From positions 1 through 6,270 of the IMG/VR virus record IMGVR_UViG_2778261462_000002: DNA of 6,270 nucleotides; one strand, written 5' to 3'. The translations under genes were made by a program, and so were the position numbers. The notes under the pieces were generated by a model. The model saw only the letters and a program-made list of their open reading frames with translations, did not search any database and was not told the origin of the DNA. Positions 2,575-6,270 of this stretch are shown here, one piece after another; positions within the stretch are counted from its first letter, which is position 1; each line of letters begins with the position of its first letter. Source of the DNA: a virus. Lineage: Duplodnaviria > Heunggongvirae > Uroviricota > Caudoviricetes.

Positions 2575-2600
2575 GAAGCCCGCTCAACCAGGCGGGCTTC
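2575..2600. terminator. Hairpin terminator between convergent operons: 9-bp perfect stem GAAGCCCGC / GCGGGCTTC with 8-nt loop.
   Basis: On the minus strand the stem is followed directly by UUUUCAAAUAUU, a good intrinsic terminator for the dre operon. On the plus strand the U-tract is about 15 nt away, so it is weaker for doc. Confidence 0.6.
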
Positions 2601-2654
2601 CTACTATCACTCAATGATTTTTTCTGCTGTCAGCCAGCTAATTCGGTGATGTTT

Positions 2655-3455
2655 TTAGGCGTCAGCATCAGCATCTGCTTCCACATCAGCCACGGCTTCA
2701 TCGGACGGTTCTTCTTTGGCCTGCTCTGCAATCGCCGCACGGCATTTGGCCCTTGCTGTGGCGATTGCTTCAGCACGCACATCATCAGGAATCGTTGACG
2801 TGATATACATATCCAGTTCTTCGGCGCGGAACACTGTTTGGTCCAGATATTCGCGTAGCATCCAGGTAAATTCGAAATCACACGCGATAATCTCTGCGCT
2901 ACCTTCCGCACCATTAGGGAAGTGGATAAACGCTTGTTTGGCTAAACCAATAACACGACATGCAGTAGCATATACAGCAAGCAATAAATTTTCGTTTTCG
3001 CATGAAACGGGCTGGTTTACGCCAGTAATAATGCCATTAATGGCCCGGTCGAACGGCTTGTAGTTCGATATGCGCTCTACACGCCATATCCCCAAAAGAG
3101 AGCCATTACGGAATATGACAGGAGTAACAGCTAATTGAAGCTCACCGATCAGCCGCTGCGCAAATGAATAATTATCAAACAAGCCAATCGGCGGGCAATG
3201 ATATGTCTGCGCCAGTTTGATCAGTTCGTCCTGTGAATACTCTTTATCACGAACAGTGAAGAACATACGTTTGCCTGTCTCACCATTACGCCAGATAGCA
3301 ATCCCTTCCTCTAACAGAAGTTCTTCGTCAAAGCCAAAATAGGCCATAACAGTGCGTTCAATAGTGACTAATGGCAGTGACATATCTGGTTCGATTTCAA
3401 CAACCAGACCGTTACGCAGGCGGTATAAAATACGTTTTGCGTTTTCCGTGCTCAT
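2655..3455 (-). CDS. Hypothetical protein X, 266 aa, with a poly-acidic C-terminal tail (EEPSDEAVADVEADADADA).
   Basis: Start chosen at the ATG at 3455 (MSTENAKRILYRL), 13 nt after the dut stop with AAAGGA upstream. The longer 332-aa ORF-track version would overlap dut by about 200 nt and is rejected. No motif I can assign. Confidence 0.55.
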   Translation of the reverse strand: MSTENAKRILYRLRNGLVVEIEPDMSLPLVTIERTVMAYFGFDEELLLEEGIAIWRNGETGKRMFFTVRDKEYSQDELIKLAQTYHCPPIGLFDNYSFAQRLIGELQLAVTPVIFRNGSLLGIWRVERISNYKPFDRAINGIITGVNQPVSCENENLLLAVYATACRVIGLAKQAFIHFPNGAEGSAEIIACDFEFTWMLREYLDQTVFRAEELDMYITSTIPDDVRAEAIATARAKCRAAIAEQAKEEPSDEAVADVEADADADA

Positions 3456-3468
3456 ATCCTTTCTCTGC

Positions 3469-3963
3469 TTATAACTTTTCGTACTTAAGCTGTGAACGCT
3501 TAATTTCAAAGCGACCTTCCGATGTGCTACCAAAGCCACCAGCACCTCGTTCTGTTTCATCGAGTTCATCAACTTCGACCAGCGAGACTTGTTCCACACG
3601 CTCAAAAATGCCTTGCATGACAGCCATTCCAGGCTTGAGGCAAACGCCTTCACCGCCGGGATCAGTAATCAATTTTGCCATGATTTCACCGCGATAATCG
3701 GAGTCGATAATTCCTACGCAGTTAGCCAGGCGCGTATGTTTTTTGCAGCCCAATCCGGATCGCGGATAGAGTTTCAGACACCAGCCGGGCGGGATCTCCA
3801 TAGCCAGTCCGGTATACACCCACCAGCTTGAGGAAATTGCACCATTGCTATCGACGCATGGTGTTATTTCAACAGCCTCAAAATCCATTGCTGCCGATCC
3901 TGCGGTGGCATAGAACGGCAGTTTTGCACCAGGATGCAGGCGCTTCACTTTTACGTTAATCAT
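3469..3963 (-). CDS. dut: dUTP diphosphatase (trimeric dUTPase), 164 aa.
   Basis: Start at the ATG at 3963 (MINVKVKRLHPGAKLPFYATAGS). dUTPase motifs present: PRSGLG, GIIDSDYRGE, RGAGGFGSTS. The N-terminus aligns with E. coli Dut (..KEFPLPTYATSGSAGLDL..). The start overlaps the upstream gene's stop by 8 nt (ATGATTAA). Confidence 0.85.
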   Translation of the reverse strand: MINVKVKRLHPGAKLPFYATAGSAAMDFEAVEITPCVDSNGAISSSWWVYTGLAMEIPPGWCLKLYPRSGLGCKKHTRLANCVGIIDSDYRGEIMAKLITDPGGEGVCLKPGMAVMQGIFERVEQVSLVEVDELDETERGAGGFGSTSEGRFEIKRSQLKYEKL

Positions 3964-4447
3964 GCTTCTTTGCTCTTTTGGTGAAGGTGTAAATTCGACG
4001 TTTAATATGCGGGGCAGTCGGTACGGATACGTTTGTGGATTCGATAATGCCTTGCTCTTCAAGAGAGCGAACGGCACGCAGGAACTGAGACGCATCGCCG
4101 CCACCGGACAGCCAGAATTTACGGGCGTAAATGCTGCCGTTACGGATAATTTCAGCAACGACACGAGACTGGGTTTGTGTTTCACGATAGGCAAACAGTT
4201 GCCGGGCTTCTTCCGGCGTAATAGCCAGTTGATAGCCTTTCCCCTTATGGGCGCGAATAAAACCAAACGACACCAGGTGTTTTAGTTCCCTGCGCGTAGT
4301 CTCATAACCGTATTCCTGTATCTGGAGATTGAGATCGGCGGGCTTTAGCCATGCTTCCGGCGACTCAGTAAGAAGCGCCAGCAACTTACCGGATAGCTCA
4401 GGGGAGGAAGACGGGTAACAGTTAAGAGATGGGTAATAGTGTTTCAT
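3956..4447 (-). CDS. Hypothetical protein Y, 163 aa, possible tandem winged-helix DNA-binding protein.
   Basis: ATG at 4447 with AAGGGGG SD 6-7 nt upstream; 4-nt ATGA overlap with Z's stop. Segments ETTRRELKHLVSFGFIRAHKGKGYQLA and SQFLRAVRSLEEQGIIES look like wHTH recognition regions; this is a composition-level call only. Confidence 0.55.
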   Translation of the reverse strand: MKHYYPSLNCYPSSSPELSGKLLALLTESPEAWLKPADLNLQIQEYGYETTRRELKHLVSFGFIRAHKGKGYQLAITPEEARQLFAYRETQTQSRVVAEIIRNGSIYARKFWLSGGGDASQFLRAVRSLEEQGIIESTNVSVPTAPHIKRRIYTFTKRAKKHD

Positions 4448-4788
4448 TTGCGCCCCCTTACTGGATAATGAGAGCGGGCATCAACCGGAGCAATGAATCC
4501 GGTTGTAGGGCGGGAAAATACGAGATCAATCTTCTCGGTCATGGCGCGATAGTTTTCCTGATAGTGGGCCAGGAGTTTTTCAGCAGCAATGACGGTTACT
4601 CGCCGGACGTAGCTTTCAGCTTCGCCCAGGTTTGACCATTTCTTTTCGAGGGTAAGTACAGGTACGGTCTCAAGCCCTGTCATGATTCCGAACACCACGA
4701 CAGCCTCGCCGCGCTTAACGCCAGCAGCAAAGGTTACGGTGTAACCGTCAACCGTGAAACGCCTTGATTCCGTGATACGACTCTGCAA
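4444..4788 (-). CDS. Hypothetical protein Z, 114 aa, with a putative TTG start.
   Basis: The first start codon after the in-frame stop at 4816-4818 is TTG at 4788, with GGGGG 4 nt upstream. The first internal ATG is codon 36, so the start is uncertain. No recognisable motif. Confidence 0.45.
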   Translation of the reverse strand: MQSRITESRRFTVDGYTVTFAAGVKRGEAVVVFGIMTGLETVPVLTLEKKWSNLGEAESYVRRVTVIAAEKLLAHYQENYRAMTEKIDLVFSRPTTGFIAPVDARSHYPVRGRK

Positions 4789-4860
4789 AGTACCCCCAGA
4801 AAAAACAGGCGTACTTTACAGTAAAATGCAGTGTTAAAAAAGGGTGTTAGAAATTTAATC

Positions 4861-5889
4861 TCATGAATCCATGAGGCGGCTATTGGCACCTGCTGTCACA
4901 CCGCCACGACGAAGATAACGCATCAGTGTTTCGGGCTTCTTCCATGTACCTTCCTGCATAATTTCAACCAAAGACACCTGTTTTTCAGCCATATCTATGG
5001 CGGCACCAACACGCGCACTGTGGCCTGTCCACGTCCGGTAACGGCCTTTATTGGGGGTGGCATCACTCTTACCCAGCAGCGCCCAGGCGTCACTGAAAAT
5101 CTTCTCCATCGCGGGCGCGGTTAATGGCGTGGTGGTGATCCGCGCTTTGTTGCTCCGGTGTACTGGCGGGAAAAGTATCGCATCCGGGTGATCACGTAGT
5201 CCGGACGCGTCCAGCCAGTCATTGAGAACCGCAGTTGTCCGGCGGGAGAGCACCTTATCAAGTCCGGCGGCGGTCGTGATGGTTTTGGTGTGGGATACGT
5301 GAAGCGTTACAGTGTCACCAGTCTGTTCCAGATCGCGAACACGCACGCGGGACATTTCAGCCATACGCAACAGGGTATTGTAGGCCAGGAACAGAAAAGC
5401 CCGGTTGCGCAGATCCACCAGCCTGTCAGAGCGGGAGAGCAGCACGTCGAGCAGTTTCAGGTCATCCCAGCGCAGGGGCACTGCCTGGCCTGTGCGTTCG
5501 CCTTTTTCGGTTGCAGCTTCGCGCCGGATGCGCCGCATCGCCAGGGATACGCTTTTGTCATCAGAGAGTTGCGGCAGTCCGCATTGTGACAACAGCATAT
5601 TGAGCATGGCGTAATGCTTTTCAATGGTGGTTGAAGCCAGATCCGCATCATGCAGTTGAAGCAGGTATTCGCGGGCAGCTTCCGGGGAGATCGGAAACCA
5701 CGCAAGACCACGAGCGTGGCACCATCGCGCCCAGGAGTGAAAGACCAGGCGCAGATCGCGCAGTGTATTAGGTGAGTAAGCGCCCTGGTCATTAAGGAAC
5801 TGCATGAAATTTTTGGCGGCTTCCTGGTACTCAGCACCAATATCACGAAGAAACATGCCAGAATTACCGGAGATAATAAGTTTACTCAT
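4861..5889 (-). CDS. dre: Cre-family tyrosine site-specific recombinase, Dre-like, 342 aa, with the catalytic set intact.
   Basis: ATG at 5889 with AGGTGA SD. Aligns along its length with P1 Cre as I recall it: SVSLAMRRIRRE vs AVSLVMRRIRKE; DLRNRAFLFLAYNTLLRMAE vs DIRNLAFLGIAYNTLLRIAE; HTKT vs RTKT; WTGHSARVGAAIDMA vs WSGHSARVGAARDMA; and the C-terminal W...MRYLR carrying the Tyr nucleophile. A rox-like site lies 152 bp upstream. Confidence 0.88.
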   Translation of the reverse strand: MSKLIISGNSGMFLRDIGAEYQEAAKNFMQFLNDQGAYSPNTLRDLRLVFHSWARWCHARGLAWFPISPEAAREYLLQLHDADLASTTIEKHYAMLNMLLSQCGLPQLSDDKSVSLAMRRIRREAATEKGERTGQAVPLRWDDLKLLDVLLSRSDRLVDLRNRAFLFLAYNTLLRMAEMSRVRVRDLEQTGDTVTLHVSHTKTITTAAGLDKVLSRRTTAVLNDWLDASGLRDHPDAILFPPVHRSNKARITTTPLTAPAMEKIFSDAWALLGKSDATPNKGRYRTWTGHSARVGAAIDMAEKQVSLVEIMQEGTWKKPETLMRYLRRGGVTAGANSRLMDS

Positions 5890-6041
5890 GTAATCATTTC
5901 ACCTCTATAAATTGGTGTCGCTACGCGAAAAAACAAAAAATGACAGGCTAGTTATCCGTGAGAATTTAAAATTTAAGCCCTTGATTCGAACCATGACTTT
6001 TTGAGCCTGTCAATACTGATCGTTTGATCATTATTATATAC

Positions 6042-6073
6042 TAACTTTAAATAATGCCAATTATCTAAAGTTA
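6042..6073. other. rox-like recombination target: TAACTTTAAATAAT-GCCA-ATTATCTAAAGTTA (14-bp inverted arms, 4-bp asymmetric spacer).
   Basis: Arms match as inverted repeats at 13 of 14 positions (A vs G at arm position 9). The sequence differs from rox as I remember it (TAACTTTAAATAATGCCAATTATTTAAAGTTA) only at 6065, C for T. Flanking C6041/G6074 extend the palindrome. It sits upstream of the Cre-family gene, as loxP does for cre. Confidence 0.7.
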
Positions 6074-6143
6074 GAAGGGGAAAAATTTTTTTTTGATACA
6101 ACGGATCAAGTGAACAAAAAAGAAACCGTTTGATAAGCGGGAT

Positions 6144-6157
6144 GGCACTGTTGCAAA
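6144..6157 (+). repeat. IS26 left terminal inverted repeat, GGCACTGTTGCAAA.
   Basis: Exact 14-bp IS26/IS6-family terminal IR as I recall it, located 63 bp before the transposase ATG. Confidence 0.85.
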
Positions 6158-6206
6158 TAGTCGGTGGTGATAAACTTATCATCCCCTTTTGCTGATGGAG
6201 CTGCAC

Positions 6207-6270
6207 ATGAACCCATTCAAAGGCCGGCATTTTCAGCGTGACATCATTCTGTGGGCCGTACGCTGGTACT
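6207..6270 (+). CDS. tnpA: IS26 transposase Tnp26 (DDE transposase, IS6 family), N-terminal 21 codons only (3'-partial).
   Basis: Translation MNPFKGRHFQRDIILWAVRWY is the IS26 Tnp N-terminus as I recall it. Confidence 0.9.
   Translation, partial: MNPFKGRHFQRDIILWAVRWY

Follow-up and report, generated by a model that had tools for sequence, protein, structure and literature searches.

A predicted tandem winged-helix protein and a canonical dUTPase as likely co-expressed members of a probable early operon in D6-like phage-plasmids

The gene for a basic, predicted winged-helix protein (called Y here) and the dUTPase gene (dut) that overlaps it are best explained, with a probability of roughly 0.65, as ordinary co-expressed members of a compact, probably C1-repressed early operon with a housekeeping dUTPase. 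The whole stretch of DNA analysed (6270 bp, called the window) originated from a D6-like phage-plasmid of the P1 family. Positions 2600-4900 were 99.9% identical to about eight plasmids, Salmonella Typhi pK91 among them, and Escherichia phage D6 matched the window at 84.5% identity across 72% of its length. P1-type genes (DUF1382, Ead/Ea22, humD and phd/doc) were found on the plus strand in the left part of the window. The right part held a minus-strand block made up of a Dre/Cre-like recombinase gene, an ORF of 114 amino acids, Y, dut and an isaA-like ORF.

All features described below lie on the minus strand. The tyrosine recombinase gene (4861-5889, 342 aa, with Pfam matches to Phage_integrase and Phage_int_SAM_1) is located upstream of the operon and is equivalent to D6 dre/orf118. 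It is followed by a c8-like gene with a TTG start (4444-4788, 114 aa; D6 orf117/orf2), Y (3956-4447, 163 aa; D6 orf116/orf3), dut (3469-3963, 164 aa; D6 orf115) and, as the final operon gene, the isaA-like gene (2655-3455, 266 aa from the ATG at 3455; phrog_2326, E 2.6e-112), which equals D6 orf113, annotated as 'similar to P1 isaA'. Within this conserved operon, which comprises four to six genes and lies directly 3' of dre, Y and dut take second and third place. The NCBI annotation pipeline (PGAP) placed identical gene boundaries in pK91, with 495 nt for dut and 492 nt for Y. A terminator-like stem-loop with a T-run (2578-2593, from a consensus scan only) was located approximately 60 nt past the isaA-like stop. 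No Rfam families were detected in the window, and the isaA-like protein, considered as a relative of P1 Mat, showed no similarity to it.

The gene series of phage D6 (AY753669, MF356679/NC_050154), namely dre, orf2/orf117, orf3/orf116 and dut, matches that of the window in content and order, and the Y/dut pair has therefore been in GenBank since 2004 as D6 orf3-dut. D6 Y is 65% identical to the window Y and is annotated there as a hypothetical protein with no fold or function assigned. D6 also differs in its 4-nt Y-dut overlap (ATGA) and in a further Tad2-like (DUF2829) gene 3' of dut, which the window lacks.

The 3' end of Y reads ...AAG AAG CAT GAT TAA, and the 5' end of dut reads ATG ATT AAC GTA AAA. 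Direct reading of the sequence thus bore out the 8-nt overlap named in the original prediction, in which the TAA of Y falls 8 nt inside the dut ATG and the common stretch is ATGATTAA (3956-3963). Support for the dut start is good, because the N-terminus M-x-x-V-K-V/I-K-R was kept in 11 lineages and the PGAP call in pK91 was identical. Since the sequence ahead of the dut ATG, AAAGAGCAAAGAAGC, contained weak purine runs only, the description of its Shine-Dalgarno (SD) sequence as weak is fair for the window lineage. Overlap and weak SD together make the layout of a coupled pair, and translation of dut is probably coupled to that of Y in this lineage. When the junctions of relatives were compared, the 8-nt overlap was found in the window and in two further loci (L004 and L005), and a 4-nt junction in D6 and L014. 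L006 and L008 had a 3-nt gap with a good GGAG, and L010, L050, L054 and L059 had 14 nt with GGAG. Dependence of dut on Y translation is not universal, because in the second clade a 3-nt gap separates dut from Y and a GGAG of its own precedes dut.

Close packing was also seen elsewhere in the operon and in the D6 genome. The stop of the c8-like gene overlaps the Y start through ATGA (4444-4447), and the isaA-like start, preceded by AGAAAGGA, lies 13 nt after the dut stop. A count over the D6 annotation gave about 35 same-strand neighbour pairs overlapping by 1-17 nt, and at least four pairs other than Y-dut overlapped by exactly 8 nt (30096/30103, 59369/59376, 62533/62540 and 70652/70659). The Y-dut overlap is no more than chance would give in such a genome and represents normal operon compaction. 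It would provide for co-expression of Y and dut, not for signalling.

The assignment of the downstream gene as a dUTPase was upheld by Pfam PF00692 (52.6 bits, cutoff 22) and by the NCBIfam dut equivalogs NF001862 (120.1 bits, cutoff 103) and TIGR00576 (117.3 bits, cutoff 102.55). The closest PDB matches were bacterial Duts (E about 1e-23 to 2e-23), and D6 Dut shared 93% identity with the window protein. When the window protein was aligned with PDB Duts and an E. coli Dut sequence, motifs I-V proved complete (GSAAMD, PRSG, IDSDYRGEI, GMAVMQ and RGAGGFGST), the last forming a C-terminal RGxxGFGST arm. The segment from motif III to motif IV was within one residue of the E. coli length and contained no insert. 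A lineage-specific, variable insert was present between motifs I and II, and the tail past motif V measured 14 residues in the window and about 60 (~45-65) in the second clade, where it is acidic and Ser/Thr/Pro-rich. The protein is a true, catalytically complete trimeric dUTPase of the canonical, housekeeping kind, which would keep dUTP low while phage DNA is made.

Y belongs to phrog_6669, a PHROG of unknown function, and scans of the window Y with Pfam and NCBIfam returned no families. The family is small: a single-sequence search gave 11 clusters at 90% identity, a profile search of 1.84 billion proteins gave seven representatives, and a broader profile gave 27 clusters. Among 50,697 phage records, Y was found in phage D6 alone, and a scan of genome contigs produced no confirmed relative. 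A 152-aa gene of the second clade, considered as a Y paralogue, was rejected at an hhalign probability of 0.1%. For Y, the c8-like and the isaA-like proteins, searches of Pfam, NCBIfam and PADLOC found nothing beyond PHROGs of unknown function.

The first AF2 model of Y, built from 11 close sequences, resolved only an N-terminal winged helix and left the C-terminal half poor (pLDDT 64.5). It was replaced by an AlphaFold model from a 22-sequence alignment reaching down to 24% identity, with pLDDT 90.8 and pTM 0.82. In this confident model Y is two tandem winged-helix domains, WH1 (residues ~16-74) and WH2 (~91-155), with the topology H1-S1-H2-H3-S2-wing-S3 and a structural likeness to winged helix-turn-helix (wHTH) regulators. 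The best fold matches were DNA-binding regulators, and neither PDB nor BFVD yielded a structural analogue over the full length (TM ≤0.42). The Y-family profile matched nothing significantly among PDB sequences, the top entries being HflK and the EutK wHTH domain (E ~0.4-0.6).

Charge and conservation were examined along the chain. The pI of the family was 8.8-10.4 throughout, and that of WH2 in the window was 10.6. Among D6-type relatives, invariant residues gather on a helix (QFLRA.R) and the wing (HIKRR.Y) of WH2; family-wide, only P16, L58, F122 and Y153 are invariant. Distant members match Pfam MarR_2 (27.5 bits, cutoff 27) and TrmB on WH2, the MarR_2 match coming from P0024, a relative with 28% identity to Y. 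Membership of the MarR family proper (PF01047/PF12802) was rejected, as the window Y matched no Pfam family and its tandem wHTH lacks the MarR dimerisation helices, in which it also differs from MarR/IscR/ArsR winged-helix regulators. SarU is, with SarS, a single-chain two-domain SarA homologue, and chains of this type offer a comparison; the two domains of Y have no detectable sequence similarity to each other, and BLASTP of WH1 against WH2 revealed no internal duplication. The winged-helix fold proposed at the outset holds up, given the confident tandem model, the basic character of Y and the conserved HIKRR wing. Y probably binds DNA, a well-grounded reading; winged helices can also bind protein or RNA.

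The protein encoded between the recombinase and Y is, by profile comparison, a homologue of P1 C8. Both proteins fall in phrog_1968 (E 6.4e-53 for P1 C8 and 5.8e-40 for the c8-like protein), and hhalign of the c8-like family against P1 C8 gave a probability of 84% (E 7.7e-6). BLASTP between the two proteins was insignificant, the homology being seen by profile methods, and a profile search of the c8-like family against PDB found nothing. The gene lies directly 3' of a Cre-type recombinase gene in P1 as in the window. P1 C8 is annotated as 'establishment of lysogeny, putative'. P1 differs in having neither Y nor dut, its c8 being followed by ref, mat and res-mod (the EcoPI restriction-modification system).

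The constant synteny of recombinase, c8-like gene and Y would also suit a protein that is not a transcription factor. Y could then be a winged-helix adaptor that works with the recombinase or the C8 homologue, for example as an accessory or architectural factor at Dre/rox, in plasmid-dimer resolution or by binding protein. Single winged-helix matches did include protein binders (the RPA32 C-terminal domain, cullin and JetA), and WH1 was near-neutral in several lineages (pI 4.9-7.9). The strongly basic WH2 with its conserved wing, the DNA-binding regulators among the top fold matches and the matches of distant members to the MarR_2 and TrmB DNA-binding models argue the other way. P1 Cre is not known to need an accessory factor, and P1 has no Y. 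We regard an adaptor role as unlikely. Under the preferred reading, Y most likely would bind DNA as a single-chain 'pseudo-dimer' and may take part, with the C8 homologue, in the early programme or in the establishment of lysogeny, either regulating it or acting as an accessory DNA-binding factor.

Synteny was compared in 60 loci with Y relatives (24-100% Y identity), annotated by profiles made from the window proteins. The gene order was invariant: recombinase, c8-like gene, the 152-aa gene in one deep clade, Y, a slot of variable content and, after the slot in all loci, the isaA-like gene. The slot was occupied by dut alone in the window, in L004 and L005 and throughout the second clade, by dut together with a Tad2-like gene (PF11195/DUF2829; E 1e-21 to 1e-25) in D6 and most E. 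coli elements, and by the Tad2-like gene alone in L003 and L044. In L012 the slot was empty and Y still present. Where dut was absent in L003 and L044, Y overlapped the Tad2-like gene in the same 8-nt manner (CATGCTTAA and AATGGTTAA, respectively).

In the reverse direction, 80 loci were retrieved with the Dut profile. All 24 loci with Dut of at least 50% identity were D6-like and had Y directly upstream, and all 56 below 50% identity were from unrelated phages in which neither Y nor a recombinase, c8-like or isaA-like gene lay close to dut. Of the GenBank phage records, 1426 had a Dut homologue and a single phage, D6, had Y, so at the level of the family dut is found without Y in most relatives. 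The question whether Y and dut always occur together therefore received a divided answer: close Dut relatives invariably follow Y, and Y exists without dut (L003, L044 and L012) and Dut mostly without Y. The presence of dut directly after Y in about 8 of 11 lineages of the D6-like clade and at both deep branches counts against the best explanation, in that it would also fit a functional link between the two. Adjacency of Y and dut in this clade is conserved synteny, which is distinct from evidence of interaction.

Pairwise identity matrices showed that the five genes of the module co-diverge (r 0.93-0.98). In this mirror-tree style test Y-dut stood at the bottom of the range (r 0.93), with no special co-divergence. 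Between clades, identity was 24-35% for the fast-evolving Y, c8-like and isaA-like proteins and ~52% for the slowly evolving Dut and recombinase. We read dut from these comparisons as a long-standing occupant of the slot, inherited vertically yet dispensable, and Y as part of the backbone. The dut gene would have been inherited vertically behind Y and, in some lineages, lost or swapped for a Tad2-like gene.

The alternation of dut, dut with a Tad2-like gene and a Tad2-like gene alone could instead mark the slot as a site for anti-defence cargo, with Y just the regulator that precedes it. Dut would then act in counter-defence, by removing dUTP from host dCTP-deaminase defences or by limiting uracil-based restriction. 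Tad2/DUF2829 proteins are Thoeris sponges (bioRxiv 10.1101/2023.05.01.538930), dut also precedes a Tad2-like gene in a viral contig unrelated to these elements (L096), and the equivalent P1 region carries a restriction-modification system. A counter-defence role of Dut is hypothetical; PADLOC gave no matches, and Dut is enzymatically canonical, for which nucleotide hygiene is explanation enough. As dut also co-diverges with the backbone, unlike mobile cargo, we find this account of dut quite improbable.

Evidence on the control of the operon came from a motif 8 nt past the recombinase stop (4845-4853), with the core TTTCTAACA in the context GATTAAATTTCTAACAC. In the complete D6 genome, TT[TG]CTAA[CT]A occurred at 21 sites versus 3.4 ± 1.9 in shuffles. 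The sites are mostly intergenic, adjoining c1, lpa, repL (both sides), ref (both sides), hrdC and pdcB, and one lies just upstream of orf117. In seven D6-type loci extending to the c1 side, the motif was nearly confined to the c1 promoter region and the site ahead of the operon, and every D6-type lineage had one copy upstream of the operon. The C1-controlled early operons of P1 likewise have an operator-like motif upstream of early genes, and several of the genes in question, ref and mat included, are under C1 operators in P1. The D6-type operator, AAATTnnTTTCTAACA, differs from the P1 consensus, ATTGCTCTAATAAATTT, which was absent from D6 at up to 3 mismatches; the 5' half of the D6-type motif (AAATTnATT) resembles the P1 consensus in reverse complement. 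From its position and enrichment and from P1 biology, we infer that the D6-type motif is the C1 operator. The interval from the motif to the c8-like start yielded neither a convincing -35/-10 pair for sigma-70 nor a consensus -35.

Immediately 3' of the motif, a conserved RNA hairpin (4783-4821, an inverted repeat) covers the SD and start of the c8-like gene. It pairs CUGUAAAGUAC with GUACUUUGCAG, and its 3' arm holds the GGGGG SD and the TTG, which as a start codon is also conserved. The minimum free energy was -20.2 kcal/mol (z = -3.67). Equivalent hairpins (-16 to -25 kcal/mol) were present in 8 of 8 D6-type lineages with differing stem sequences, and two pairs showed compensatory changes (GC/UA and UA/CG). 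The 5' arm contains a conserved TGTAAAGT.

Given the C1-operator motif and the hairpin hiding the ribosome-binding site and TTG, the operon is probably silent in the plasmid-prophage and turned on early after infection or induction, C1 control and timing both being inferred. Speculatively, RNA reading through from dre would fold the hairpin, so that neither the c8-like gene nor its coupled downstream genes could be translated, and transcripts from a C1-controlled start near TGTAAAGT would lack the 5' arm and have a free SD.

The Y-dut pairing had also been taken as a hint of signalling of the kind known from staphylococcal pathogenicity islands. In such a scheme acting in cis, Y would be a repressor, apo-Dut would bind it and lift the repression, and the dUTP pool or Dut level would control the operon or the rox/dre region. 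Y is a probable DNA binder by its model, it neighbours dut at both deep branches and stands before all D6-clade Duts with 50% identity or more, and Dut surface features vary by lineage (the insert between motifs I and II; tails of 14 to ~60 residues). The likeness to SaPIbov1 Stl and 80alpha/phi11 Dut ends at the combination of a DNA-binding protein, predicted here, with a phage trimeric dUTPase.

Stl of SaPIbov1 is satellite-encoded and all-alpha; its XRE-type HTH is followed by a middle domain that binds Dut and by a C-terminal domain for dimerisation (PMC6695447). Y is instead a predicted tandem wHTH protein lacking this three-domain architecture, and no Stl appeared among its sequence or fold matches. 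Staphylococcal inducing Duts need motif VI plus motifs IV and V, motif VI of 80alpha Dut comprising residues 95-127 between motifs III and IV (PMC5593958). The 80alpha/phi11 inducing Duts carry it and the window Dut does not. In the staphylococcal system, repressor and Dut reside on competing elements, satellite and helper phage; here both genes are in one operon of one phage-plasmid, so the logic of a parasite sensing its helper phage is absent. Y also persists without Dut in some lineages, unlike the Stl-Dut pairing: it is coupled in the same way to the Tad2-like gene in L003 and L044 and stands alone in L012. Co-divergence of Y and dut is not raised, and overlaps like theirs are routine in D6. 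The proposal of Stl-like signalling was not sustained; we consider a derepressing Dut very unlikely, as we do a Stl-like Dut-Y interaction of any kind. Very unlikely, too, is the related idea that Dut moonlights in cis by binding Y and makes expression of the early c8-Y-dut operon, or the choice between lysis and lysogeny, depend on the cellular dUTP/dUMP state. If true, this would be a Gram-negative, within-element counterpart of Stl-Dut, with the lineage-variable Dut insert and C-terminal tails as interaction surfaces.

The comparative data argue against a special signalling role of Dut, and the proposal as it was made matters little. Modest gains are the confident tandem winged-helix model for phrog_6669, a small family of hypothetical proteins confined to D6-like phage-plasmids, and a picture of its operon as an early unit, probably under C1 control, whose variable slot is also home to Tad2-like anti-defence genes. 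The conserved hairpin sequestering the ribosome-binding site suggests a way in which recombinase read-through may be silenced. These leads bear on how early genes are organised in phage-plasmids of the P1 family, vehicles for the spread of antibiotic-resistance genes in Salmonella and E. coli.

The promoter-like site TTGGCA-16-TATAAT (6060-6033, minus strand) is near-consensus, matching at 11/12 positions, and is directed toward the recombinase gene dre. It lies within a rox-like recombination site (window 6041-6074, TAACTTTAAATAAT-GCCA-ATTATCTAAAGTTA), whose two arms are 15 nt each with a complementarity of 93%. About 70 bp past the rox-like site, the end of the window (~6143-6270) resembles the left terminus of an IS26 copy, with GGCACTGTTGCAAA followed by an apparent transposase ORF from 6207 (MNPFKGRHFQRDIILWAVRWY...). 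The counterpart of this insertion position in Escherichia phage D6 is the c1 promoter region. IS26 is also present in the Salmonella Typhi plasmid pK91, located elsewhere than the IS26-like end of the window.

Downstream of dre, a hairpin on the minus strand (window 4783-4821) sequesters the Shine-Dalgarno sequence and the TTG start of the c8-like gene. Among the loci carrying relatives of Y or Dut (L-numbers), the hairpin was kept at the equivalent position in L001, L003, L004, L005, L012, L014 and L044, with energies of -16 to -25 kcal/mol (z = -3.67 for the window copy) and with compensatory pairs in part. The TTG start itself was conserved. A possible role for the hairpin is that of a gate, blocking translation of dre read-through transcripts.

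The motif TT[TG]CTAA[CT]A, with the extended form AAATTnnTTTCTAACA, occurs at 4845-4853 in the window and at 21 sites in the D6 genome (L143 and L144), a six-fold enrichment. Because these sites adjoin c1, lpa, repL, ref, hrdC, pdcB and orf117, the motif is probably the D6-type C1 operator; the annotation of the D6 record contains no operator.

Identity between the window and D6 was uneven along the module, at 93-95% for Dut, 90% for the recombinase, 79% for the c8-like protein, 71% for the isaA-like protein and 65-66% for Y. Either the small proteins have evolved rapidly or the module is a mosaic. Individual records also showed irregularities. In L045 (4001-4478) Y was found in two ORFs, with an apparent frameshift on a single contig and an intact dut, while in L042 (464-957) dut was split by an apparent frameshift, again on a single contig. 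At L002 7009-7643, the dut 3' end of the 2004 D6 immC record (AY753669) diverges from that of the 2017 genome (72.6% identity over 143 aa). The apparent frameshifts at these three loci may be sequencing errors or pseudogenes.

The second, deep-branching clade has features of its own. Its dUTPases (L006 5481-6125, L008, L010, L050, L054 and L059) are 193-214 aa in full length and carry, directly behind catalytic motif V, a low-complexity tail of 45-65 residues, which is acidic, rich in Ser/Thr/Pro/Ala and ends in a C-terminal KKTTSK. An extra 152-aa gene (phrog_8101) stands between the c8-like gene and Y (L006 4436-4894; equivalents in L007-L011 and L047-L060), and its product showed no relation to Y.

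In most D6-like elements, the slot behind Y or behind dut holds a Tad2-like gene (PF11195/DUF2829, the Thoeris anti-defence sponge family), as at L003 6410-6940, L044 ~4470-5111, L001 5329-5769 (D6 orf114) and L014 4995-5681. The encoded proteins are 146-228 aa with variable N-terminal extensions, and the window lineage has no Tad2-like gene. On an unrelated 102-kb viral contig (L096 3001-3857), dut is followed directly by a Tad2-like gene; the adjacency of dut and Tad2-like genes therefore recurs beyond the D6 family.
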